Position numbers and translations under genes: made by a program
IMG/VR virus record: IMGVR_UViG_3300028629_000001
Coordinates: 1-37,424 of that record
DNA length: 37,424 nt
Strand: one strand, 5' to 3'
DNA from: a virus
Notes under the pieces: model-generated
Told to the model about the DNA's origin: nothing
The model's database searches: none
The model's input: the letters and a program-made list of their open reading frames with translations, nothing else
Shown: positions 13,236 through 34,900 of the stretch, in pieces
Layout: the number at the start of each line of letters is the position of its first letter
Numbering within the stretch: position 1 is the stretch's first letter

Positions 13236-14773
13236 TTGCTAAGCCTCGTCGCCATGTTCGCCAGCGCCGATTGTGCGCTTACCTGTGCCTGTTCAACCGC
13301 CGCTTCTTTTTGCGCTTCAAGCTCAGAAAGTATCTCTTCATCAGTCCTGCTATCGTTAATCAGGTTCACGCGCCGTTGATACCGTATCAAGTCGCCTAGC
13401 GCATACAGGTTGTCGTTTACCTGATTTCTAAGCTCGGCCAGTATCTGTGCGTCTGGCGCAAAATCCATGTACTCAGTGTTAAGACTAAAGACCGCCCTGC
13501 CGCCGCCGAAGCCCCAGTCAAGCGCGAATTGTAGCCATTGCTCGGTTATCCGTGAGCAGGCCCGCGCCATATCCGCAAGCGTCGCCGACTCCGCCGAAGC
13601 TCGAATCCTCACCGTTGTTGCCGCTTCAGCCGCTGCCTTGTCTTGTGTCAGCATCCTTCCGCCGAACTTGGCGATATTGGTCAGGATTGACACGCCGCGT
13701 GCCGCCAGTGCATCTAGCCCTTGCCCAGTAAACTCAAGATACTTCGCGTCCGCATTTTCGTTGACCGAATGTATGCCGTTGAGCCCGCCCAAAGTTATGC
13801 CCTGGACTTCCTCATCCGTGAATCCAAAGAATGCCGCTGTCGGTATGCCTACCGCAAAGCACGCGTTCGCGAACTCGACCGCCCATTGATAGTACTCGTG
13901 CATTAAGTCAATCAGATCATTCAGCGGTGGCGTCTCAATATCGCGCTTGCCGCCGCGTGGCGAGTACATGTAGAACGGTATGCTGTCCAGCGGACGACCG
14001 CCCTTGCGGGGCACTATCTCAGTAGCGCTATAGTCGTCGTCAATGCCCCGCCGCGTGTAGAAAACTTGCTTATACTCGCCATCCTCCAGGACAAGCTCGC
14101 GATAGTCATAGTCGTACCCATCGGCACGACGGACACGCTCACGCAACTTATAGTACACAGGCACAAGTCGCCCACCGATGCGCGCCTCTCGCCAGTCCAG
14201 GATGTCCTCAGCCTTGTATGACGCCGCGTAAGGACGCAGGCCCATCCGCTCCGCCTCTGCTACGGTTATCCCAAGTTGGTTGACGGGCGGTGTGTCCAGT
14301 AGCACACCATGTCGTCCGACGAGCAGCACTTCAGCCAGCACGCCCTCGACGAACTCCACAAGCGGCGTCTCTTGTAGGTCAGCATCATCAAGGAGCGGGC
14401 ATGATGGCGGTAGCTCAATCAGGGGCGGAGTCGAAAAGATAAGTCCTAAGTACCCCGACCGTGTCAGCGCGACGTATGACGGGCAGTGCCCGCGCAAAAG
14501 GTAGAGGACGTACTCGGTATAGGTCATACGGTCAGACGTTGGGAGGATATACGCAGACTGCGCGATGGTGGCAAACTGCGCGCCCGCGACCGGAAGCCTC
14601 GACACGCCGGAAAGGTCGCGGATAACCGACGCGCAGCCCTGCGCCCACAATGCCAGGTCATGCGCACGCATGGCGTTGACGCCCGTCGCAAAGTCACGCG
14701 CCTTGGTCCATTGTGGGAGCATCCTTGTATACTCTGGATGCGTTGCCTGTAATCGCCGATCTAGCTCAGTCAT
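13232..14773 (-). CDS. Portal protein
   Basis: 513 aa. The ATG at 14773 overlaps the terminase TGA (ATGA). It lies between the large terminase and the MuF-like gene. Confidence 0.8.
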   Translation of the reverse strand: MTELDRRLQATHPEYTRMLPQWTKARDFATGVNAMRAHDLALWAQGCASVIRDLSGVSRLPVAGAQFATIAQSAYILPTSDRMTYTEYVLYLLRGHCPSYVALTRSGYLGLIFSTPPLIELPPSCPLLDDADLQETPLVEFVEGVLAEVLLVGRHGVLLDTPPVNQLGITVAEAERMGLRPYAASYKAEDILDWREARIGGRLVPVYYKLRERVRRADGYDYDYRELVLEDGEYKQVFYTRRGIDDDYSATEIVPRKGGRPLDSIPFYMYSPRGGKRDIETPPLNDLIDLMHEYYQWAVEFANACFAVGIPTAAFFGFTDEEVQGITLGGLNGIHSVNENADAKYLEFTGQGLDALAARGVSILTNIAKFGGRMLTQDKAAAEAATTVRIRASAESATLADMARACSRITEQWLQFALDWGFGGGRAVFSLNTEYMDFAPDAQILAELRNQVNDNLYALGDLIRYQRRVNLINDSRTDEEILSELEAQKEAAVEQAQVSAQSALANMATRLSK

Positions 14774-16011: not shown

Positions 16012-16412
16012 GAGTCGGCCTCTTGATCGCTAGATGCTTGACTCGTGTCGCCATTGTCGCCCTTGTCTACCTCAACGCCAGGCCCCGCGACGACTATTTG
16101 CGGCAGGTCGCCAGTAATAGCCACCTTACTCCCTTCCGTTGTCTCCCTGATTTCTTTTATCAATGCAATCTTCGCTGAATCTGACCCTTTCGCTAATATT
16201 TGCGTAACAACCTGCTCTAATAGTTCAAGCCCTGTTGCGGGCTTTCCATCGATAACCACTTTCGTTTTCTTAGCAAGCAGCCGTGCATACATCTCTGAAA
16301 TAGCAGCTTTCTCTCGCCTAGCTTTTGCCGACGCCTTGCCTCCTTTTGAGCCCAGTTCTCTAGCTTCGCTCTTGCTGCGCTGCGAAGTAGGAATAAGGTT
16401 CTGCTCATTCAT
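16008..16412 (-). CDS. Putative terminase small subunit
   Basis: 134 aa with a basic N-terminus (KGGKASAKARREK) and an acidic tail. ATGA-coupled to terL. Confidence 0.5.
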   Translation of the reverse strand: MNEQNLIPTSQRSKSEARELGSKGGKASAKARREKAAISEMYARLLAKKTKVVIDGKPATGLELLEQVVTQILAKGSDSAKIALIKEIRETTEGSKVAITGDLPQIVVAGPGVEVDKGDNGDTSQASSDQEADS

Positions 16413-17145
16413 TCTTATTCTCCTGCTGCATCTTCGCCTTCTGCCTAATCTGGTATTTCGTCATCCAAGCCTTAGAATATTCAGCGTTCTCAAATAGCTT
16501 AGAGAAGCCAGTAATATGTTTTAGCTTAAGAACTTCCTCTGGCTGCATGCCTAATTCTTGACATATCTCAGCCTCGCTCATACCATTATCGAGCATCTGG
16601 AATACGAGGTTAGACATTCCTGTTACCATATGCTCTCCTCTGGCTCTATTATGCCTTACAGTAGACGCCATCCTCTCGGTAATGTCTTTATCTATCACTA
16701 CTATAGGGATCCTACCATTTATCCGCTTAGAAATATCTGCCTTAGTCTTTGCTATAAAATATCTGTGGAATCCGTCAACAATAATGTACTTGTCTAGCTC
16801 TTTATCGTATACCGTTACAATAGGCTGAGTATACCCATCGTGAGAGATTGAAACGTATAACAGCTCCATCTCTATACTTGCTACTGAGTTAGGGTTATAG
16901 TCGTTTGCCTGTACTATATCTACTGGCACCCAAAGAATTCTATCGACTGGTTGGCTCTTCTGCGGTGATAGGCTGCTAATAAATGTTCTTAATTCATTCA
17001 AAAATTCGATCTTGTCATCTGCCTCATTGAACCACTTAGTTATCAGCTCAATATCTTTTTTGCTTCTTTTCTTTAACCCGCCCTGTAGGTCTTCTATTGC
17101 ATCGAGCGGCAATAAATCGGCTGTTTTGCAGGCAATTCTTACCAC
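16405..17145 (-). CDS. ParB/Srx-fold (ParB N-terminal domain, IbrB-like) protein
   Basis: The GTG at 17145 lies 6 nt after GGAGG. The motif YIIVDGFHRY follows NDYNPNSV. It is the first gene of the late operon. Confidence 0.65.
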   Translation of the reverse strand: MVRIACKTADLLPLDAIEDLQGGLKKRSKKDIELITKWFNEADDKIEFLNELRTFISSLSPQKSQPVDRILWVPVDIVQANDYNPNSVASIEMELLYVSISHDGYTQPIVTVYDKELDKYIIVDGFHRYFIAKTKADISKRINGRIPIVVIDKDITERMASTVRHNRARGEHMVTGMSNLVFQMLDNGMSEAEICQELGMQPEEVLKLKHITGFSKLFENAEYSKAWMTKYQIRQKAKMQQENKNE

Positions 17146-17750: not shown

Positions 17751-17763
17751 TTTCAACCTCCTT

Positions 17764-17949
17764 TTATTCATTATGCTTTATCTCTCGCACTTCTATCGAT
17801 TTAATAGCAAGATTCGACCGATACTTTTTATTTGACTCATTCACGATTCTTATTGCCTCGTCTTCATTCCTTGCGAACGGACATGCAACGAAAGGTTTGT
17901 CATACCCATCGAAATAAACTGCAACTTCGTATTCCTTCATTTTTATCAT
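17764..17949 (-). CDS. Hypothetical protein (61 aa)
   Basis: ORF with an upstream SD sequence. No recognisable motif. Confidence 0.45.
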   Translation of the reverse strand: MIKMKEYEVAVYFDGYDKPFVACPFARNEDEAIRIVNESNKKYRSNLAIKSIEVREIKHNE

Positions 17950-17959
17950 TCTCTACCTC

Positions 17960-18157
17960 CTATCTCAATCCAAGCCGCCTAGCCATAAATGCCTCAGCCT
18001 CAAGTCCAAAGCACCTGTCGTTCCATTTCCGTATAAGCTCAGCGGCGCTCGCCGAATGTTTCGCCTCTAGTAACATCAATAGCCGCCTATATTCGCTGTA
18101 ATAGTCTATCCGCTCAACCAGCGGAATCGTGTTGCTAGCGTGTTCATCCCAAACCAT
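17960..18157 (-). CDS. Hypothetical protein, paralogue A (65 aa)
   Basis: MVWDEHASNTIPLVERIDYY...RKWNDRCFG...RRLGLR is colinear with the product of 20063..20260. Confidence 0.6.
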   Translation of the reverse strand: MVWDEHASNTIPLVERIDYYSEYRRLLMLLEAKHSASAAELIRKWNDRCFGLEAEAFMARRLGLR

Positions 18158-18159
18158 TT

Positions 18160-18375
18160 TCAGCCTCCTTTGTGTTTCGCTAATATGGTTATTATAATGC
18201 TCGACACAACAACACCAATAAAAAACGCTGCCGCGAGCAGAAATCCAAGTGCTGCACGAAACGTCTCTCCGGTTCCCACTAGCGCATACTCCTCTATACT
18301 CCTATGCGCCAAGAGACTCAAGGTAATACTTAACGCTATTGCAACGGCAGTAGTGGCATAACCGACTGTTTTCAC
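18160..18375 (-). CDS. Small membrane protein (two predicted TM helices)
   Basis: The GTG at 18375 overlaps the upstream TGA; a TTG at 18393 is an alternative start. Two hydrophobic stretches are present. Confidence 0.45.
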   Translation of the reverse strand: MKTVGYATTAVAIALSITLSLLAHRSIEEYALVGTGETFRAALGFLLAAAFFIGVVVSSIIITILAKHKGG

Positions 18376-18557
18376 CCTTGTTTCTTGCTCCAATTAGCAA
18401 AGTCTCTAATTTCGTTAGACATAGCCTGAAACTCATCAGCTAGTTTCTCTGCTTCCTCCCCGTCCAGATAGCCCAAATCGATTTTTGTAAACTCAACCTT
18501 CAGAGTAACGAAGAGAAACCTATGCGAGCGATCTGTCCTTGTACTTACCGAAACCAT
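18372..18557 (-). CDS. Hypothetical protein (61 aa)
   Basis: The ATG at 18557 follows GAAGGAG. Confidence 0.45.
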   Translation of the reverse strand: MVSVSTRTDRSHRFLFVTLKVEFTKIDLGYLDGEEAEKLADEFQAMSNEIRDFANWSKKQG

Positions 18558-18559
18558 AC

Positions 18560-18811
18560 TCACTCCTTCTCTGGTTCCCAAACTACAATCATACTTGGGA
18601 ACGGGGCACTATAGATTGCACCTGAAAACTTCAGGCGCCCCCTCAAAAACCGTATCTGTGCTTTATGATAAATGAAGTCATGAAACCATTTTGTATCTGT
18701 TCGAGCAGGAAGAAGTCCAACCACAAGCGCACCACGACACGCTTCCCGATAAGCCTTTTCCACCCACTTACCGATTGCTCGTCCGTACGATGGAAATATA
18801 CATACCAGCAC
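18560..18811 (-). pseudogene. 5'-truncated phage Dam-like N6-adenine DNA methyltransferase remnant
   Basis: The product ...WVLVCIFPSYGRAIGKWVEKAY...LLPARTDTKWFHD...FLRGRLKF matches the C-terminal half of phage Dam proteins. FPSY stands in place of the NPPY motif. The frame is closed by a TGA only 4 codons upstream of the GTG, so the AdoMet-binding N-terminal half is absent. Confidence 0.55.
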
Positions 18812-18848
18812 CCAAATGTCTGCTCAATTCCTACTGTAATTTCATAAA

Positions 18849-19856
18849 TCATTTTTCTGCCCCCTCTTTTATACCACCGTTCTCATTCCACAGCATCAAA
18901 CTTTGCTCTATTCGATATTTAGATGATTTTGATGTGTGCCTTTTTATCAAGAAATCTTGAAAAGAGCTTTTCTTAAAAAAATTAACTTGGTTTGTATAAG
19001 AACAAATATCTATATAAAAAGGATTATATACACTATCCCAACAAGAAATATCTCTCATAACATATGGTAAACACTTATGATTTTTCAAAAAAATGATTCT
19101 TTGTACTGTTTCTCTAATAGACATATCAGGATGAACATATACAAAAAATCTTAATTGCCAATCCTTTGCCCATTTTAAAAGAGACATTTTTTCCTCGATT
19201 ATATCTTTGTATGTGTATGAATCAAAAGCAAAGGTGTATTCCCCCCAATAATTAAGTTCAGATAACAGCTTTGAATTTCTTTCATTCAGCAATCTAATAT
19301 CAAGTCCTTGATTAAACTGACATTTTATTTTCTTATCAACCAACTCTTGCAATATCTGCTCGTGGTCTGGAAAAGCCAGAATATTATTATCAAGAAATTT
19401 TACTTGTTTATGCCTAACAATGTCATCTATATTGTTTACTTTATGAATATAACCTTCCTTTTTTGGAACTTTACAAAAACTACAATTCCTTATACAACCT
19501 CTTGTAATAAACCCATACGATGTGTTATTGTTTGGGTATAAACTATAATCAGGTTCAAAATGTTCTATTTCATCCGGTAACGTTGTATTTAAGTCAAAAC
19601 CAGTACCACCAAATATAATGTTTTTACCTTTTACATAAGAAACATTACCATCAAAAACAACAGAGCAGTATATTATATCAAACTCATCGAATAGTGTATG
19701 AGGGGTATAATATGTGATTTTCTTTCTAGTGGGGTAATATGGCAAGTTGCACTTATGAAGTGTTACATCATCCCCCTTGCTTTTGTGCCATCCACCTAAT
19801 TTCATTAGTGGTAGATTGGGTATAACTGAATCGGCATCAATTAACAATATTTTCAT
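18849..19856 (-). CDS. Radical SAM enzyme (CxxxCxxC) with an N-terminal Rossmann/B12-binding-like region
   Basis: Motif RGCIRNCSFCKV. The likely start is MKILLIDADS at 19856. The gene is strongly AT-rich, unlike the rest of the genome. Confidence 0.7.
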   Translation of the reverse strand: MKILLIDADSVIPNLPLMKLGGWHKSKGDDVTLHKCNLPYYPTRKKITYYTPHTLFDEFDIIYCSVVFDGNVSYVKGKNIIFGGTGFDLNTTLPDEIEHFEPDYSLYPNNNTSYGFITRGCIRNCSFCKVPKKEGYIHKVNNIDDIVRHKQVKFLDNNILAFPDHEQILQELVDKKIKCQFNQGLDIRLLNERNSKLLSELNYWGEYTFAFDSYTYKDIIEEKMSLLKWAKDWQLRFFVYVHPDMSIRETVQRIIFLKNHKCLPYVMRDISCWDSVYNPFYIDICSYTNQVNFFKKSSFQDFLIKRHTSKSSKYRIEQSLMLWNENGGIKEGAEK

Positions 19857-20052
19857 CAATAAATTTAAGGACAGGCTTGGATTGATCTTCAACTACCATC
19901 GACAAATTGCAATCGCAAATGTCCTTCTGCTTCGTAGTTTTTAGAATCTGTGCAATAGTAGCAGAATCATCAAAAATATAAGTTTTTATGTAATCCTGAT
20001 ATTGGAATTCTCCTACTTGGTAATAGCCTTTTATATGTGCTGCTATTTTCAT
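19837..20052 (-). CDS. Hypothetical protein (71 aa), part of the AT-rich island
   Basis: Its 3' end overlaps the radical SAM start, and it shares the same AT-rich composition. Confidence 0.45.
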   Translation of the reverse strand: MKIAAHIKGYYQVGEFQYQDYIKTYIFDDSATIAQILKTTKQKDICDCNLSMVVEDQSKPVLKFIDENIVN

Positions 20053-20062
20053 ATCCTGCCTC

Positions 20063-20260
20063 CTATCTCAATCCTAATCGTCGCGACATATACGCCTCGG
20101 AATCTCGCCCGAAGCATTTATCGTTCCATTTGCGCACGATCGCCGAAGCCTTGCCCGAATGTTTTGCGCTCAATACGGTAAGCATCCGCTCGTAATCTTC
20201 ATAGTAATCCAATCTTTTAACCAATGGAATCATATTGCTAGCGTGTTCATCCCAAACCAT
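20063..20260 (-). CDS. Hypothetical protein, paralogue B (65 aa)
   Basis: The ATG at 20260 follows GGAGGctgaaa, identical to the context of copy A. The product is MVWDEHASNMIPLVKRLDYY...RKWNDKCFG...RRLGLR. Confidence 0.6.
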   Translation of the reverse strand: MVWDEHASNMIPLVKRLDYYEDYERMLTVLSAKHSGKASAIVRKWNDKCFGRDSEAYMSRRLGLR

Positions 20261-20273
20261 TTTCAGCCTCCTT

Positions 20274-20495
20274 TCAGCATCCAACGCTTTCTAATCTCAT
20301 GAGCGTATTTTGTAACTCTCGTTCAATCACTTTGCCAGTGTTGTCTTGAGCCTTAGCAATAGTAAGCAAATTATTTAGACATACAACCTCGTTTTTTGAT
20401 AAGTTCACCTGATGCCTTTCGTCTTCGGGCATCCATTTTAGCTTATCCAGTAAACGATCAATAATATTTTGCGCAGCCAATATTCCCTCATTCAT
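20274..20495 (-). CDS. Hypothetical protein (73 aa)
   Basis: ORF in operon context. No recognisable motif. Confidence 0.45.
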   Translation of the reverse strand: MNEGILAAQNIIDRLLDKLKWMPEDERHQVNLSKNEVVCLNNLLTIAKAQDNTGKVIERELQNTLMRLESVGC

Positions 20496-20898
20496 TTTTT
20501 ACTCCCTTATTCAATTTTCTATACCGCTCAATCTCCTCAATCAGCCATTCCCTTGGAAGATGCCTTTCTCCATTTAATTCCGCCTTTGCCTCCAGCCGCT
20601 TTACTCGCTCCTCGCCAATATCAGCGACAAGTCTTGATCGGAATTTCATCGGCTCACCTCCTCTATATTTGTTACATCCTTGACATTGAGGTCTGATATT
20701 ATCTAGCTCGTACCTCGTTGCGTAGAACCTCCGAGAAATATAATGTCCAGCGTCAATCTCTGAGACAGGATGCGGCGCCCCGCACGTATAGCAAAAACAC
20801 CAGCCATTCACTGCTGCTTTGTTGCGAACGTAAATCGAAACCTCTTTATCCAATAGGTTAATTAGCTGTTGGTAGGTCTTTTTATTCAGATCAGCCAT
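20488..20898 (-). CDS. ninG: NinG/Rap-family recombination endonuclease
   Basis: CFCYTCG...DAGHYISRR...NIRPQCQGCNKYRGG matches the Cys/His pattern of lambda NinG. Confidence 0.7.
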   Translation of the reverse strand: MADLNKKTYQQLINLLDKEVSIYVRNKAAVNGWCFCYTCGAPHPVSEIDAGHYISRRFYATRYELDNIRPQCQGCNKYRGGEPMKFRSRLVADIGEERVKRLEAKAELNGERHLPREWLIEEIERYRKLNKGVKNE

Positions 20899-20908
20899 CC
20901 TTCACCTC

Positions 20909-21325
20909 CTACAAAATATCGACGCCACTTTCGTCTTCTATCTTCCGCCAATGCCCTCTGGAATTGACGAACCCATCTATCCCCGAAGCATCATTTGGTT
21001 GCTCAATCTTAATCCCCCTTGTCCGTTGCATATATTCGACAAAATCGCTAAATCCTACCTTCACATATTCGCCATTCTCTATGAGCCGTTTTTGCGCTAT
21101 CGGTTTCATGTTTTGCACAGCCTCCTCACGTAACCGCTCGAATATCGCAATGTCCGGCGGTTTAGCCGCTACGTTGGAATATCTTTTCGTTAGTACCTCC
21201 TTTAGCGAATCCAAATATTGCGGGGATAAATCCCGTATATATTTTGTTATTTCAACCTGCTGAACATCGTTATATGCGGACTTGTAGTATTTCATTAACC
21301 AGTACGCAAACTCAGTAGGACTCAT
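20909..21325 (-). CDS. Hypothetical protein (138 aa), replication-module context
   Basis: ATGA-type coupling to the upstream replisome organizer gene. Confidence 0.45.
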   Translation of the reverse strand: MSPTEFAYWLMKYYKSAYNDVQQVEITKYIRDLSPQYLDSLKEVLTKRYSNVAAKPPDIAIFERLREEAVQNMKPIAQKRLIENGEYVKVGFSDFVEYMQRTRGIKIEQPNDASGIDGFVNSRGHWRKIEDESGVDIL

Positions 21326-22290
21326 TGCCCCGCCTCCTCAATCAGTCTTATAAAATTACGCAGCCCGTCGTCGTCTCGCCGTATTAAAAACCTTATTCTA
21401 TCCCATAGAGAGACAAGCACCGAAGGTAAGAAGGGCTGATCCTGCCAGAATTTATCACCAGCGCAACGGAGCTCTTGAAACTTTTTCATCATAACTTCAA
21501 TTTCCTCTTCGTAGCCTTTTGTTAGGTAAATTATTTTCTTGATCGCTGCACCCTCCTTCCCATAGTTAGCAAAAGCTCCGTTAACCTCCTCGAACCGTTG
21601 TTTTATTGCATTGTATAGCTCTATATCGTTTCCAGCCTTGCTTGCTCTTTTGCGCTTAGTCTTTTTATCGTTAATAACAGCATAATTCATACAATCAAGT
21701 GTAGAATCATCAACCTCGTCTTGTATTTCTTTTTGATAGTTTTGAATTTCGTTTTGCTTCGAAAGCATTACCGCTTCAGCCGAAGGCTGTCTTATATTTA
21801 TATTACTATTACTATTAAGATTAAGATAGTTCGACTCCCTTGTAAGGGGCTTGTAAGGGGCTTGTAAGGGGCTTATATCGAGCTTCCTCTTTTCTATTAT
21901 TTCATTCAGAAAAGGATATTTATATCCAGACCGAATAACGAATAACAATTTCTCATCATCAAGCGACATAAGAATGTCATCGATGCCTTTTCGGTTATTG
22001 TCGTTCTCGCTCACTTTCTGATGCTTCGGCCAATTAACTAAAACGATCAGATCGTCTTTTACGAATACCTTTCCTGCTTTCTCAAATTTTTTTAATATAT
22101 TCGCTATGGTATCCGAGTTATATCCAGTATCGAATACAATCCTTCTTGTTGTGATCTCATAAATTCCCGCTATATTAGTGAGCGGGTTTGTGAGCAGATA
22201 TAGATATACGAATTTTTCGCTTGGGTCTAATGACTGAACCCAGGCGTCATCCCAGAAGCCTGTATTGATATATCTATTTTTACTTTTCAT
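21322..22290 (-). CDS. Replisome organizer / replication initiator (phage rep_org N-terminal domain)
   Basis: The ATG at 22290 lies 5 nt after GGAGG. The N-terminus is FWDDAWVQSLDPSEKFVYLYLLTNPLTNIAGIYEIT. The central linker carries iterons. Confidence 0.7.
   Translation of the reverse strand: MKSKNRYINTGFWDDAWVQSLDPSEKFVYLYLLTNPLTNIAGIYEITTRRIVFDTGYNSDTIANILKKFEKAGKVFVKDDLIVLVNWPKHQKVSENDNNRKGIDDILMSLDDEKLLFVIRSGYKYPFLNEIIEKRKLDISPLQAPYKPLTRESNYLNLNSNSNINIRQPSAEAVMLSKQNEIQNYQKEIQDEVDDSTLDCMNYAVINDKKTKRKRASKAGNDIELYNAIKQRFEEVNGAFANYGKEGAAIKKIIYLTKGYEEEIEVMMKKFQELRCAGDKFWQDQPFLPSVLVSLWDRIRFLIRRDDDGLRNFIRLIEEAGQ
21839..21874. repeat. Three tandem 11-bp iterons (cttgtaagggg) plus a partial copy, inside the initiator gene
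   Basis: Read directly at 21839..21849, 21850..21860 and 21861..21871. An adjacent AT-rich tract lies at 21791..21830. Confidence 0.85.
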
Positions 22291-22304
22291 CTTTGCCTCC
22301 AGCA

Positions 22305-22390
22305 ATAAAAAAGAGTCATCGGGGCTTGGCGAGAGCGGCTAGCTCTCATTTCAGCCGCGACGCGTGCGGCTCCAAGCCCTAATGACTCTT
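22305..22390 (-). terminator. Y-shaped intrinsic terminator-like structure
   Basis: An outer 19-bp stem (22311..22329 pairing with 22372..22390, 2 mismatches) encloses two hairpins at 22331..22347 and 22353..22371. On the minus strand it is followed by TTTTTTATT. Confidence 0.55.
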
Positions 22391-29009: not shown

Positions 29010-29120
29010 GAGCGAGAACCGACATGGTAGCCCGCATTCGAGCGAAGGTAAAGCAGATAAAGGCACGCGAGACCGGCACTGGACGCGTCGTGCCAGTTAC
29101 CACCGCAGATCGGCAGGCGC
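29010..29120 (-). repeat. Non-coding DGR-type repeat (copy 2), 91/111 nt identical to the fibre VR
   Basis: Aligned by eye to 30330..30440. It lies in the position where a DGR template repeat would sit. Only a 44-codon ORF covers it. Confidence 0.8.
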
Positions 29121-29242: not shown

Positions 29243-30052
29243 TTACGCCCAATCTAACCAAAAGTCTAAATCTGCCAAGATTCCTGTCTGCCTCCTGAAT
29301 GAGGTACCGCTTCTCGGCGCTTTCTGAAACGACACTTGCTCTATGGTTTTCTCACTACTTTCGAGCACTCGGTCAATTTCAGCTCTCAATTCTATTAACA
29401 GCGCAATTGCCTCCTTTGTCGGCTCGAATGACCCTTTCGCGCGCAACGCGATAAGGACAAGGCGTGCGTTCGTCATCGGGAACATGCCATTTGAGCGCGT
29501 GAAAAATTCTTCTTGCTTTTCGTCAGGCTTTGCCCCGCTTTGATTGAGCTTAACAGCAAGGCTCGATGCTCCAGCGGCAACAGGGCGGCGCTCGCCATCG
29601 CTAAACTGCACACTGCGCTTTTGAAAGAATTCTTTTGCGCGCTCCGGCGTGATGCCTAATGCTTTAGCGATAACCTCGATGGGCAGTTTTAGCTCTTGCG
29701 CCTTAATGATGACGTGCGCTTTGTCCATCGGCGACAGCGGCAATCCCTGGCTTGCATTGAGCGCCACTGCGTCAATAAAGACGTCCTTGTCACTTTTGTA
29801 TTCACGCATGATTGCGCGGATCTGCGCTGATTCTCCGTAGACTTTTTCATGCGCCTTTGTACGATGGAACCCGTCAACGATTCGCATGGTTTTTTTATCA
29901 ACGATAATCGGCGGAAGCTCGATTCCAGCCTTTATTGCGTCCACCATACGCATGACGTTGGTGTAGTCAACATTATTAGCCTCGTGACGCGGCCAAATAC
30001 CCCAATCAAAAATCAAAGACGCGCACGGAACAAAAACTACATCCTCTCCCAT
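29243..30052 (-). CDS. ParB/Srx-fold protein with HTH (second ParB-like gene)
   Basis: The ATG at 30052 lies 7 nt after AGGAGG. Motifs are PPIIVDKKTMRIVDGFHR and IEVIAKALGITPERAKEF. Confidence 0.65.
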   Translation of the reverse strand: MGEDVVFVPCASLIFDWGIWPRHEANNVDYTNVMRMVDAIKAGIELPPIIVDKKTMRIVDGFHRTKAHEKVYGESAQIRAIMREYKSDKDVFIDAVALNASQGLPLSPMDKAHVIIKAQELKLPIEVIAKALGITPERAKEFFQKRSVQFSDGERRPVAAGASSLAVKLNQSGAKPDEKQEEFFTRSNGMFPMTNARLVLIALRAKGSFEPTKEAIALLIELRAEIDRVLESSEKTIEQVSFQKAPRSGTSFRRQTGILADLDFWLDWA

Positions 30053-30280
30053 TTCACACCTCCTAAAAATTATTCTCCCATCAGTCTTTTTAGCTTTTCC
30101 CGCTCCATTTCCTCGCACCGCGGGCAAAGTGTCCGCTTGGATCGCCGCTCCTGTATCGAGGAGCGCGTTGACCGTTTGCGCTGCCAAAGTGTGGCGTTCG
30201 CTCTTCGGGTAGCTCTTTATGGCGATGTACGCATATCCGGCGAGATCCTCCCACTTTGTCAGCACGGTTAAGTTGTCCAT
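30053..30280 (-). pseudogene. avd: Truncated avd (DGR accessory variability determinant) remnant, in frame with the ParB-like gene
   Basis: MDNLTVLTKWEDLAGYAYIAIKSYPKSERHTLAAQTVNALLDTGAAI matches helices 1-2 of four-helix-bundle Avd proteins, including the P(K/R)xE(R/K) motif. Only 76 codons remain; helices 3-4 are absent. Confidence 0.55.
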
Positions 30281-30307
30281 TAAGAAACCTCCAAGAAAGA
30301 TCAAGGA

Positions 30308-31855
30308 TCAGGAGAGAGAAATAAAAGCCGAGCGAGAACCGATAACGCTGCCCACAGCCGAGCGAAGGTCATCCAGATAAAGGCACGCGAGACCGGCAAC
30401 GGCCGGGTTGCCCCAGCCACCACCGCAGATCGGCAGGCGCTCACCGTAGTTTCGCATGTATAAAATGCCCTTCGGCGACCACGGATTTGTGCTGCCAGTG
30501 CTGGAAATCTTGGGAGCTATCCCCGCTTTGAGCATTCTCTGACGGACAGCGATATTAAGAGCATCATACTCTGCAGCCATCATCAAGGAGCTATGCACTA
30601 CCGAGGAAGAATTCGGATTGGTCAGCGCATTCTCGCGAGAGGTATTAAGTATGGGAACACCACCTGATCCAGCAACAGTATTATCAAAATACACTCCTTG
30701 CGAAGGCCAAGATGCTTCTGCGAGATCAAAATAGTTGTCGTTCGGCATATAAATGAGGCCGTCCACAATTTTCATTAAATCGGTCCACTCGTACATCGAC
30801 CCTACAAGATCGTAGATACCCCATCGCTCACGATTGTGGGACCATGTTGAGGGGCATGATCCGTTTCTGTGTTTCGGGGTTCCCGATGCCACTCCTGGAG
30901 CTAACCCGTCAAATCGGACCGCAGACTCATACTCGTAGCCTGATTCGTGGCTTCTGCCGTAGTAGGTATTTCCCCTCGGCTCTGTGCCCATCTTCATAGA
31001 AAGCCACATAATGAGCGCGCGCTCCCAAATATTCATCATGTGCCAGCCAGGGCCTTTAGATGTATGCAAGGCTTTATTGACGTCATAATTTAGACTTCCA
31101 GTCGGATAAAGGCCAGGCCAAGATACGGCGCGCCATCCAGTGCCACTACCATGATAACTTGTACCATTGAAGCTGGTCATCTTAAACATTGAAATAAATA
31201 TTTCAGTTTTTTGTACACCGTTAACCTTAAAAGCGGGGAAATCATCGGTCCCTAAAGTGGCACCGCCCATATCAGAATGGATATGCCCCGCGAGGATAGG
31301 CCCGCGAATAACGTACATCATCGAGGGGAAACCAAGGTCATCATGTATTACTGTGGCCGCTCCATTGGATGAAGATTCAACAATTCTTTTTAATAGGGAT
31401 GGTGGCATCTTTGCTGCGGCATTATAATCCCAAAGCGCAGTCGCCGCTTCAGCGTCTGCAAGCTGTTGTAAGTGCGCATACCCGGCGGCAAGTGCACCTT
31501 TCTCTGCAGCGGTAACGCGCTTGTAATTCGTTCCATCGTCGAGGCTATCAAGGTTATACCCGCCAGCGTCAAGCAAGGAAGCAATCTCTGCGCCTGTGGC
31601 CTTCGGCACTTTTGTGGCGTCCTGCTGTCCAGTCGAGGCAAGCTGCACCTTACCTTTGACGCTTGTTGTTGCATCGGGCAGACGGTTCGCCAATTCGGTC
31701 GGCGAATCCAATACGTCTTTCAGAAACTTCGTTCTATTTGCAAGTGCCTGCGCCTGTGCGTTCATTACGCCGCCGGGGCCACCTATTGCCTGAGTTGTCG
31801 TCTCGAGTTGCGGTACGCCAGATTCATACACTGACGATTCGGTTAAATTTGCCAT
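30308..31855 (-). CDS. Tail fibre / receptor-binding protein with a C-type-lectin (FGE-like) fold and a C-terminal DGR variable region
   Basis: The N-terminus is a conserved fibre motif (SVYESGVPQLETTTQAIGGPGGVMNAQAQALANRTKFLKDVL). IYDLVGSMYEWTD is FGE/CLec-like. The C-terminus is CGGGWGNPAVAGLACLYLDDLRSAVGSVIGSRS. Confidence 0.75.
   Translation of the reverse strand: MANLTESSVYESGVPQLETTTQAIGGPGGVMNAQAQALANRTKFLKDVLDSPTELANRLPDATTSVKGKVQLASTGQQDATKVPKATGAEIASLLDAGGYNLDSLDDGTNYKRVTAAEKGALAAGYAHLQQLADAEAATALWDYNAAAKMPPSLLKRIVESSSNGAATVIHDDLGFPSMMYVIRGPILAGHIHSDMGGATLGTDDFPAFKVNGVQKTEIFISMFKMTSFNGTSYHGSGTGWRAVSWPGLYPTGSLNYDVNKALHTSKGPGWHMMNIWERALIMWLSMKMGTEPRGNTYYGRSHESGYEYESAVRFDGLAPGVASGTPKHRNGSCPSTWSHNRERWGIYDLVGSMYEWTDLMKIVDGLIYMPNDNYFDLAEASWPSQGVYFDNTVAGSGGVPILNTSRENALTNPNSSSVVHSSLMMAAEYDALNIAVRQRMLKAGIAPKISSTGSTNPWSPKGILYMRNYGERLPICGGGWGNPAVAGLACLYLDDLRSAVGSVIGSRSAFISLS
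30330..30440 (-). repeat. DGR variable-region-type repeat (copy 1) at the 3' end of the fibre gene
   Basis: A 111-nt block shared with 29010..29120. All 20 mismatches fall at codon positions 1 or 2. Confidence 0.8.
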
Positions 31856-31954: not shown

Positions 31955-34900
31955 TTATGGATGATATGGCGTTGCAAGTGAGAAACCAAAACGATACATC
32001 TTAAGAGATTTGTTGTAACTGTCGATAAATGCCACATCAGTACCATTCATCGCGGCAAGAGCAGGTATTCCCCCAGAAAGCGATATACTCCCAGCTGACC
32101 CTACCTGCGCCCAACTTGAACCATTCCAGCGATATACTCTAATGGAATCGTTGGATCTGTCGATAAATGCAACATCGGTACTATTAAGTGCGGTAAGTGC
32201 TACTTGGCCTACTCCCGTTATTGTTAATCCAGAACCTACTTGTGCCCAACTTGAACCATTCCAACGATATACTTTAAGGGATTCGATGTAACTGTCGATA
32301 AATGCCACATCGGTACTATTGAGTGCTGCAAGTGCAGGATAACCTACTCCCGTTATTGTTAATCCAGAACCGACCTGCGCCCAACTTGAACCATTCCAGC
32401 GATATACTCTAATGGAATCGTTGCCACTGTCGATAAATGCCACATCAGTACTACTGAGGGCTGCAAGCGCGGGAGTGCCTGCTCCTGATATTGTTAATCC
32501 AGAACCAACTTGTGTCCAAGTTGAGCCATCCCAGCGATATACTCTAAGAGAAGCGTTGACACCGTCGATAAATGCCACATCGGTACCATTAAGCGCCGCA
32601 AGTGCGGGGTAGCCTATTCCTGATATCGATAACCCAGAACCTACTTGTGCCCACGTTGAACCATTCCAGCGATATACTCTGAGAGAATCGTTGTCCCTGT
32701 CGATAAATGCAACATCGGTACTATTGAGTGCTGCAAGTGCAGCGGAGCCTGCTCCAGATATCGTTAATCCAGAACCTAGTTGCACAGGGCTTGACCATTT
32801 CACACCTCGCACTTCGGCAATATCTAGTTTCGCGCCAACCGCCTCAAGAACCCCAGTTGAATGCGCGAGCCTAAAGCCAGCCGAGGGGAAGCCTGTAGGG
32901 TCGGTAGCGAAATTCGACGATTTGATATATCCTGTGGTGCCTAAAACAATGTTTTGTGCAAAGAGAAAACGGACCAGCAGAGTCTCAAAACTCGTTGCCC
33001 CCGTACCTATGTAGTCAGCCGACACACCATATCCCTGCCTGACGGCATCAAGTACGTAGACAAAGCATAATGATACTTGATTCGCCGTAGGGCTAGGCTG
33101 TTTGGTCCATGTTGTGCCGATATAGGCATAGATGCCACGTTCGGCCCACACTGTGGAGTAAAGCACGGCAAGGTCATTCTCGTGCATTCCCGCGATTGAG
33201 CCACGGCTGGCGTAAGCAAAGAGGCCAAGACATCTAGGTATCATCTCCTCAACGTCATCTTCGCTAAGTTGAGGCAAACCATCCGCAACCCATGACGTTG
33301 TATAAATGTACCATTGCCGAGTATCGGTCTGATAAACGCTATCACCGAAAATCATGCCAGTAAGCGCATTTCTTGCGGTAGTATTGGCTACGTCAGCATA
33401 CCGTTTCGGGGTGAGGCGCGTTGAGTTTGCAAGAGTGATTGATGCGCCAGCTACAGTACAGCGGTAGAGCAGGGAGGCGTCGAGGAATAAATCCCCAATT
33501 TTGGCGGAGGCTTGCGCGAGCGCGAGCGTCGCCCATACTGTGGTTTTCGCGTTTGCCGTTCCTTGCGCGGCGTCGGCGAGAGTTTTTGCCTTCGCAGCGA
33601 TAGCGTTCAGGAGTGCGGTTCTGGCGTCGTAGTAGGCTTTCCACGTTGCCCGGAATGTAGCACCTACGATATCGGTTGTCGTTCCGAGGTTTGCATCAGC
33701 GAGCCACGAAGGAATTCCAGATGTCCAGGTCGTTCCGGCATTTAGATAGGTAGCAAGAGCCTGGAATGCATTATCGTAGGCCGTCTTTTCAGTGGTTATT
33801 CCGAAAGCGGTAGCCTGTGCATCGTTCGCCGTGAGTTCGGCGGCGATTATATTCCACTCGCTTCTTGCGCTAGATTTTTCAACCGGAGTGAGCTTGCTGT
33901 CTGATGCAATATCGGCAAGCAGATTATTTGCGATAGTCGCAGAGGATGCGGCATTGTTGGCGGTAGTCTGCGCATTCGCAGCTGCGGTCACGGCAGAATT
34001 TGCCGTTCCTTGCGCGGCGTCGGCGGCCCCGGCCGCTGCGGTCGCGCAAGCCTGCGCGACGGGATCAGATATCTCCGTCCACGCTGTACCACTCCACTGT
34101 TTCCATACGGCTCCTGTAGCGGTGCGCCAATAATCGCCAATATGTTCATTTTTTAATGCGGTTGTTGTCCAGTCAATTGAAGGGTCGCCAGCTTGCGTAT
34201 AGTAAACAATTGCCCTGTCAACCTGTGTCTGTAGAGCTGAGGCAAGCGTTTCCGCATAATCTTTTGCATCGTCTGCATAATCTGAAGCTATTGATGCTAC
34301 TTCTGCCGCTGTCTGCCCAGCATAATCCCTTACCCATGTATTTGGCATTGTGCCGATATATATTATCCCTTGATAAATTCCGTATTGACCGTTGAAATCC
34401 ACGGGGGCAGAGAGCGTTGCAAGTGCTTTTGTTGCAGGATATGGAATCACGTCTTGTGATGGCGGATATACCGGCGTCACTGTAGATGGCGCCGAGGCTT
34501 TCGGCCCGAAGCTCACCTTGCTATTAAATTCAGGTATTGCACCAGCATCGGCATTGTGCACAGCTGGAGCCGCTTCAAACAATGTCAATTTCGCCGACAA
34601 ATCATCGTTCAAATCAATACCAAATACGATACAGTCAATGGTCTCAAGGCCAGCGATACCGAAGAAGAACATATCTCCGACAGCTGGCATATCATCATTG
34701 ACAGGCATACCGCTTGAAAAAGTAAGCGTGTGTGTGTCGCCAGCAACCGTTGCAACAGGCCAGTAAATTGAAGCCCCACTTGAAGTCCTAAAACGTATAG
34801 CATATGATTTACCTGATTCCATAAACACCGCATTGTCGGTTTCTACAGCGAGAATATCGCCATATTCATCGGTAGTTAATCCTGTAAGCCTGCCATCTGC

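Follow-up and report, generated by a model that had tools for sequence, protein, structure and literature searches.

A Rossmann-type domain followed by a partial TIM barrel is found in two radical S-adenosylmethionine (SAM) enzymes of solved structure, MgmA, which C-methylates glutamine in a B12-dependent manner, and AprD4, a diol dehydratase that has a B12-like domain. The same order of domains is predicted for a 335-residue protein encoded on the minus strand of the virus record IMGVR_UViG_3300028629_000001 (IMG/VR), a complete record, 37,424 bp long and bearing direct terminal repeats; this whole stretch of DNA is called the window below. Phages with PHROG 9298 proteins (Clostridium phage phiCT453B gp19, Bacteroides phage LoVEphage and Oscillospiraceae phage NatCom_21982) carry homologues of nearly full length at 30-37% identity, which share the two-domain layout and an invariant CxxxCxxC motif. 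Their genes lie in the replication/packaging interval, often beside a DNA methyltransferase gene, and in NatCom_21982 (L017) the order is methyltransferase, radical SAM gene, methyltransferase. Compared with these, the protein of the window falls in a 'long' clade marked by an extra NLPYYPxRKK segment (alignment columns ~46-60), the genes of which are markedly AT-rich relative to their flanks in several phages. We show here that the AT-rich island holding the gene in the window amounts to a cassette of one gene, which encodes a stand-alone radical SAM enzyme, and suggest, tentatively and from genomic context, that the predicted enzyme may act on DNA or nucleotides in restriction evasion.

A precedent for phage-encoded radical SAM chemistry on DNA is gp53 of phage M6, a spore photoproduct lyase (SPL)-like radical SAM isomerase that functions in thymidine hypermodification, acting on DNA after replication within a multi-gene 5-hydroxymethyldeoxyuridine pathway (PMC8989533). 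The protein of the window does not group with SPL or gp53 (TIGR03886, 13.4 bits against a cut-off of 437.6; no SPL among the 50 best PDB matches) and pathway partners are lacking. The prokaryotic viperins and OpnA of the Ophion system likewise place radical SAM chemistry in phage-host conflict but differ in architecture and in partners (PHP and PRTase proteins in the case of OpnA), whereas the protein of the window is phage-borne and stand-alone. Judged by the tests run on the predicted protein, neither M6 gp53 nor OpnA is related to it.

The gene and the elements that bear directly on it are as follows.
18849-19856, minus strand: radical SAM enzyme gene, 335 aa (PHROG 9298, AF2 model, Foldseek)
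19473-19496, minus strand: codons of the predicted [4Fe-4S]-binding motif C121-x3-C125-x2-C128
~18853-19899: foreign AT-rich DNA, ~1.05 kb, GC 0.31, made up of the radical SAM open reading frame (ORF), 37 nt upstream and 26 nt downstream
19837-20052, minus strand: orf71, a resident small gene of the phage lineage, ~60 aa in relatives
18560-18852, minus strand: decayed T1-type Dam DNA methyltransferase, abutting the radical SAM gene

An earlier, sequence-only reading of the window had described the radical SAM ORF of 335 codons, and this is borne out: it runs from an ATG at 19856 to a stop at 18849, with RGCIRNCSFC as residues 119-128. A TTG-started reading of 347 aa is unlikely, since PHROG 9298 and all homologues begin MKILLIDADS. 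The match to PHROG 9298 (E 5.6e-62, 210.8 bits) covers profile positions 1-296 of 305 from residues 13-319 of the 347-aa reading. The predicted product consists of a Rossmann/B12-binding-like domain at approximately residues 1-100, the CxxxCxxC motif at 121-128, a partial TIM barrel and a C-terminal helical bundle. The barrel, with alternating strand-helix units over residues 112-268, is predicted in an AF2 model (pLDDT 92.2, pTM 0.86), and this model together with Foldseek also supports the Rossmann/B12-binding-like domain claimed previously. Foldseek gave a probability of 1.00 to several radical SAM structures. The best solved matches were MgmA (PDB 9ccb, E 2.8e-6) and AprD4 (PDB 6fd2, E 4.9e-6), with TM-scores of 0.54-0.58 and 10-12% identity; the others matched the core only.

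Conservation of the cluster motif was assessed in two alignments, A2 (14 diverse sequences) and A3 (44 sequences of the close clade). C121, C125 and C128 are invariant in both, and the motif is also kept in relatives fused to an ATPase (see below). Other motifs invariant in both alignments are DxDSxxPNxxLMK at the start, GG-G, DNN, FxQGxDxRL and FxxD, and approximately 55 positions besides the catalytic motif are invariant in A3. The Pfam radical SAM profile PF04055 is matched at 19.2 bits, under its gathering score of 29.5 and over profile positions 3-74 only; the family is a divergent radical SAM branch. NCBIfam returned weak matches (12.7-19.6 bits) to B12-radical SAM and MiaB/RimO models around the cluster loop. 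A profile search of PDB sequences gave a best E of only 0.03, a fold search of BFVD found only unnamed or generic radical SAM proteins, and no PADLOC model matches the stand-alone protein. Compared with class B radical SAM enzymes it is ~100 residues shorter, does not match the Pfam B12-binding domain (PF02310) and scores 14-20 bits in NCBIfam against cut-offs of 251-450. AprD4, which is as good a match as MgmA, has the Rossmann-type domain yet does not use B12. On sequence and model, therefore, the protein is predicted to be a radical SAM enzyme of 'Rossmann domain first' architecture that passes no characterised subfamily test.

Both the radical SAM gene and the 71-aa ORF, which is present at 19837-20052, had been taken to form an AT-rich island. 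The G+C counts offered for this are exact (18 of 60 at 19261-19320 and 39 of 60 at 13561-13620), and the base composition of both ORFs departs from that of the genome, with a GC fraction of 0.306 for the radical SAM gene (0.253 at third codon positions) and 0.315 for orf71 against 0.482 overall. At 100-bp resolution the break is real, GC being 0.23-0.34 at ~18900-20050 and 0.41-0.52 on either side. Among all segments of 1047 bp (mean GC 0.483, standard deviation 0.050) the lowest in the genome is this region at 0.302, 3.6 standard deviations under the mean; the next lowest non-overlapping segment is at 0.382.

The extent of the acquired DNA emerges from comparison with sibling phages (L178-L183), which were recovered via a look-up of orf71 homologues only. 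These are 94-99% identical to the window across the replisome organiser, NinG and small genes, and all of them have an orf71 homologue and no radical SAM gene. Because it is present in siblings without the radical SAM gene, orf71 is a resident gene outside the acquired DNA. The claim of recent horizontal acquisition thus stands for the radical SAM gene, which is missing between flanks of such high identity and has a 93.5% identical copy in an unrelated contig, and fails for the 71-aa ORF. The compositional break (0.31 against 0.48) and the absence from L178-L183 together mark the gene as a horizontally acquired island. Homologues of orf71 number 18 (59-72 aa, with one of 109 aa), and profile scans gave no family match for it.

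Alignment with L183 and L179 places the left junction of the foreign DNA after codon S58 of orf71, the last 13 codons of which are an insertion-made, chimeric tail (KPVLKFIDENIVN) that overlaps the radical SAM start by 20 nt. The right end abuts the Dam remnant at 18852. The gene has lost its own stop: the copy in contig L002 ends WNENS-stop, and in the window nine extra codons (GGIKEGAEK) result from read-through into local sequence as far as a TGA, which overlaps the Dam remnant's ATG. Stop-start overlaps of the ATGA type are found at the radical SAM gene and its neighbours. With regard to a moron-type framing, no promoter-like site beyond chance was found upstream of orf71 or the radical SAM gene and no terminator after the latter. 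Repeats, hairpins and conserved flanks at the ends of the gene were sought and none was found.

The same unit is seen to have moved elsewhere. L002 is a 35-kb IMG/VR contig of an unrelated phage whose sole stretch in common with the window is 18879-19861, at 93.5% nucleotide identity, the alignment breaking off a few bases ahead of the ATG at one end and at the final codons at the other. In L002 the cassette separates the two permease genes of an operon for a sugar-type ABC transporter, which also encodes the binding protein (L002:3628-8149). Pairwise blastn of the window and ten loci found the radical SAM ORF to be the only shared DNA, except among phages of the same type (L005/L006/L007 and L009/L010). 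Between unrelated phages homology begins 0-14 nt from the ATG and mostly ends inside the ORF; in the pair L009/L012 it extends ~30 nt beyond the stop. Within the clade of at least 55% identity, the gene also has a GC 0.12-0.195 below its flanks in L012, L018, L026, L021 and L009. Comparison of the copies in the window and L002 over 326 codons gave 0.27 synonymous substitutions per site (dS) and 0.026 nonsynonymous (dN), a dN/dS of 0.096, demonstrating that the gene is under strong purifying selection.

Carriage as cargo of an IS607-like serine recombinase was considered and rejected. Such a recombinase (HTH_17 and Resolvase domains) overlaps the radical SAM stop by 14 nt at L009:6950-7558 and L010:1102-1719, and one lies beside the gene in a single lineage only, L009-L011. 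Scars are present in L012-L014 and L018/L098, where related phages retain its first 15 or last ~30 codons (L012:6950-6994, L018:1572-1661). There is none in the window, where an ATGAGAA 'scar' is uninformative because it lies inside the radical SAM reading frame.

The family to which the protein belongs is large. A HMMER search of 1.84 billion representatives returned 1,825 clusters at E <=0.001 and 1,116 at 1e-10, so that it spans ~1,800 clusters at 50% identity, and none of the 3,992 proteins found by a word-indexed search is functionally named. Genome matches come from Bacillota, Bacteroidota, Desulfobacterota, Lentisphaerae, DPANN, methanogenic archaea and others, mostly anaerobes, and annotated phages with the gene infect Clostridium, Bacteroides, Oscillospiraceae and Methanomassiliicoccales. 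Two members (P0138 and P0265) contain an intein directly before the second cluster cysteine (GCIRN / intein / CSFC), which is the +1 residue. Inteins usually reside in conserved catalytic sites of replication-related proteins.

Gene neighbourhoods were surveyed in 175 loci, dereplicated to 145, with ORFs called simply by taking the longest. DNA methyltransferases head the list of neighbours, in four kinds (C5, ParB-type N6/N4, T1-type Dam and D12), followed by DEAD and SNF2 helicases, integrase, VRR-NUC, SSB, HNH, small terminase and PAPS reductase. Methyltransferases occur at 11% at each of positions -1 and +1 and at 0-5% at positions 2-6. In a Pfam tally they account for 18 of 141 genes at -1 and 12 of 140 at +1 (30/281) against 2 of 148 at positions +-5/6 (odds ratio 8.7, p 1.7e-4), these outer positions of the same loci serving as the control rather than position-matched random genes. 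A methyltransferase directly adjoins the radical SAM gene in 28 of the 145 loci, always on the same strand and often overlapping. Other direct neighbours are DndB (two), PAPS reductase (two), ParB_N (four), a Tad2-like protein and a SAM decarboxylase. The radical SAM gene of L012-L014 is flanked by RecA-like and 5'-3' exonuclease genes, with a family A DNA polymerase and SbcCD near.

In the window itself the adjoining gene is a Dam methyltransferase in decay. Compared by three-frame translation with an intact homologue (L122_9) it has lost the N-terminal ~50 residues; it is frameshifted, being read from the ATG at 18852 and then in the frame of a GTG at 18811, and it has FPSY at the catalytic NPPY. 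It matches PF05869 over positions 66-146 of 169 at 27.4 bits, below the cut-off of 28.1, and phrog_111 with an E of 1.3e-21. T1-type Dam genes beside the radical SAM gene are also split or frameshifted in LoVEphage (L016:5132-5621) and in a Lachnospiraceae prophage (L129:5893-6168), as in the window; this could be due to sequencing error, phase variation or recurrent decay. The description of the radical SAM gene as an orphan consequently stands in part. Neither queuosine genes nor nrdD nor any other evident pathway partner is seen among the scanned ORFs, as had been said, but the gene abuts a decayed Dam gene and its family prefers DNA methyltransferases as neighbours.

An anaerobic ribonucleotide reductase activase of the NrdG type is not indicated, the motif lying at residue 121 behind a 100-residue domain and activase families not being matched; nrdD was not found among scanned genome ORFs of at least 100 aa. 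For QueE and the 7-deazaguanine pathway, the TM-score to QueE is 0.31-0.33 and there are no queC, queD or DpdA-type genes among the scanned ORFs. A maturase of ribosomally synthesised and post-translationally modified peptides, acting on the upstream small ORF, was considered and rejected: orf71 is resident without the radical SAM gene, upstream small ORFs are non-homologous across loci, and there are no SPASM/twitch cysteines.

A side branch of the family consists of relatives of ~700 residues in which a Septu PtuA-type ATPase precedes the radical SAM module. With an alignment as query, a metagenome scan turned up 68 ORFs of this kind, each at least 600 aa long, in 80 loci, an earlier scan with a single fusion protein as query having found no match. 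A DruA-domain protein (PF14236, E 4.4e-36) is near the fusion in 16 loci, at +1 in 14 and at -2 in two. The Septu ATPase partners a separate HNH nuclease, PtuB, and the radical SAM module would thus stand in an effector-like position. The combination of fusion and DruA protein (e.g. L257:9223-10533, among L184-L263), accompanied at some loci by Hsp70/GrpE or Schlafen-AlbA genes, looks like an undescribed candidate defence system.

With regard to function, nucleic-acid modification, nucleotide chemistry and counter-defence had each been put forward, and these continue to be best guesses drawn from context. The cassette recombined recently into an accessory hot spot between replication genes (replisome organiser, NinG) and ParB-like/terminase genes of a siphovirus-type phage, an event that cost the resident orf71 its 3' end and placed the cassette beside the decayed Dam. 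As it has neither promoter nor terminator of its own and is translationally coupled, the gene would be expected to be expressed with the early-to-middle lytic operon. In the model that we tentatively prefer, the enzyme would hold a single [4Fe-4S] cluster via C121, C125 and C128, and reductive cleavage of SAM would generate a 5'-deoxyadenosyl radical that abstracts hydrogen from a substrate available in every host, most likely DNA or a nucleotide. Candidate chemistries are C-methylation involving the B12-like domain or another radical modification. The gene would then form part of the phage's DNA-modification and restriction-evasion toolkit in the manner of the orphan DNA methyltransferases. 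Speaking for the model are the invariant cluster cysteines, the confident two-domain AF2 model and the inteins at the cluster motif, together with the nucleic-acid company that the gene keeps (adjacent methyltransferases, DndB, PAPS reductase and ParB_N, the genes around it in L012-L014, and the C5 methyltransferase of sibling L181) and the fusion of a side branch to a PtuA-type ATPase.

Several observations weigh against this model. Eighty per cent of loci have no adjacent methyltransferase, and those that are adjacent belong to differing classes and lie on either side. Such diversity, together with absence from most loci, points to a common guild or hot spot more readily than to a fixed two-enzyme partnership. 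The neighbouring Dam is dead in the window and the scanned ORFs include no intact methyltransferase. The cluster loop is about as close to tRNA and protein methylthiotransferases as to anything else, and the best TM-scores, ~0.55-0.58 at 10-12% identity, speak for a fold and carry no information on the substrate. A full-text literature search found no study of PHROG 9298-type radical SAM proteins and no biochemical or genetic data on any member. Action on DNA or nucleotides in restriction evasion is accordingly put forward as a possibility that falls somewhat short of being probable. A bolder form of the proposal seems doubtful to us: that the family is an oxygen-independent DNA base modifier, the first radical SAM enzyme to install a DNA modification unaided (for example by C-methylation or by modifying methylated bases), allowing escape from restriction in mostly anaerobic hosts, and that cells co-opted the domain as the effector of the ATPase-radical SAM and DruA-like defence module.

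An alternative is that the enzyme modifies RNA or protein during host takeover, with a host tRNA, rRNA or protein as target (as for MiaB/RimO or the MCR glutamine methylase), so as to favour phage translation or disable a host factor. The only sequence-level likeness to named enzymes is indeed to RimO, MiaB and B12-radical SAM protein methylases at the cluster loop. With MiaB/RimO the protein shares a similar loop, Y-x-x-I-x-x-G-C-x-x-x-C-x-F-C-x-V/I-P-x-x-x-G, though with an E of only 0.04-0.1. The best structural match, MgmA, methylates protein, and a single self-sufficient gene would suit a universal host target. However, scores are far under family cut-offs (18.5 bits against 357 for the RimO model TIGR01125) and no TRAM domain was detected. 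No cysteine of the N-terminal domain is conserved across A2 and there is therefore no triad for a second cluster, unlike in MiaB/RimO; C64 is near-invariant within the close clade A3 only. The enrichment among neighbours is, moreover, of DNA enzymes and not RNA enzymes. We regard this alternative as unlikely.

A role as a phage-borne defence or superinfection-exclusion effector, shielding the lysogen or infected cell from competing phages, is rather less easily accepted. The numerous PtuA-like ATPase fusions with a DruA-domain protein nearby would suit it, as would the status of the gene as a foreign, AT-rich accessory gene and the use of other radical SAM enzymes, such as OpnA, in defence. 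On the other hand, the gene is coupled translationally to lytic-cycle genes and has no promoter or terminator of its own, homologues are found within replication/recombination modules, in phages that have a DNA polymerase of their own, and the stand-alone form has neither the ATPase nor the DruA partner.

The viral auxiliary metabolic genes listed in metagenome surveys commonly include radical SAM enzymes, and AprD4, among the best structural matches, is a small-molecule diol dehydratase. The gene might accordingly encode a small-molecule or auxiliary metabolic enzyme that during infection makes or alters a cofactor, a signal derived from nucleotides or a metabolite related to SAM. Such chemistry usually requires a pathway, and recurrent biosynthetic partner genes are absent from the 145 loci, which makes this explanation distinctly improbable. 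Travel as a bare gene, clustering with DNA methyltransferases and fusion to a defence-type ATPase argue for an active player in phage-host conflict and not a metabolic passenger. Finally, that the gene is a functionless hitch-hiker, a neutral or decaying passenger spread by recombination alone, would agree with its ORF-precise mobility, the decaying Dam beside it and the loss of its stop with read-through, but is very remote given the low dN/dS since the split from the L002 copy and the invariance in A3 of the catalytic motif and so many other positions.

The remainder of the window is in keeping with a siphovirus-type layout. The minus strand carries almost all of the long ORFs, and family scans identified tape measure, head morphogenesis, large terminase and tail fibre genes, a gene of portal size, an exonuclease and a Gam-like protein. 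The radical SAM gene lies within an accessory stretch of small genes flanked by replication genes and ParB/terminase genes, of which the following were placed by the same scans.
16405-17145: ParB-like protein
20488-20898: NinG/Rap
21322-22305: DnaD-like replisome organiser

A near-identical phage genome was not found in a GenBank search. Relative to its closest sibling, L183, which is collinear with the window from 23000 to 19906 at 93.7% identity and picks up again at 17762, the window carries an extra block.
17763-19905: extra block of 2.14 kb, containing the radical SAM gene, the Dam remnant and the next four features
18372-18581: orf69
18160-18393: orf77, a membrane protein
17960-18157: MVWDEH paralogue A
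17764-17949: 61-aa gene
20063-20260, minus strand: MVWDEH paralogue B, which brackets the block together with paralogue A

The right-hand part of this block is 82-96% identical to siblings of the L178/L180 type, and only the radical SAM gene is truly foreign within it. The two MVWDEH paralogues agree over 41 nucleotides at the 5' junction and over 17 at the 3' junction and have diverged in between, with a protein identity of 66%. Such a pattern would be expected if related phages had recombined at conserved gene boundaries. Siblings hold other cargo in this accessory region: a C5 DNA methyltransferase two genes away in one (L181:2542-3585), and an IS607 TnpA, a LAGLIDADG-like ORF and TnpB in another (L180:2625-5282).

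Repeats were also observed at tail fibre genes. A tail-fibre-like gene (30308-31855) is linked at its 3' end, through a direct repeat of 111 nt (82% identity) at 29010-29120 and 30330-30440, with the region downstream of a gene at 29243-30304 that has ParB-like and weak Avd-like matches. The layout is reminiscent of a diversity-generating retroelement; the substitutions are not adenine-specific and there is no reverse transcriptase among the scanned ORFs. At 31962-32801 there are five tandem copies with a period of 135 nt (reported repeat unit 300 nt) and 60-84% identity, which lie at the 3' end, encoding the C-terminal part, of a 1765-aa central tail fibre gene.

The family described here is widespread in phages and prophages whose hosts, among them archaea, live in gut, sediment and digesters, and has so far been named only 'radical SAM domain protein'. 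Sibling phages with and without the gene provide a clean natural experiment. Should the enzyme prove to modify DNA, it would bring a new, oxygen-independent chemistry to the modification of phage DNA and offer a new means of labelling DNA.

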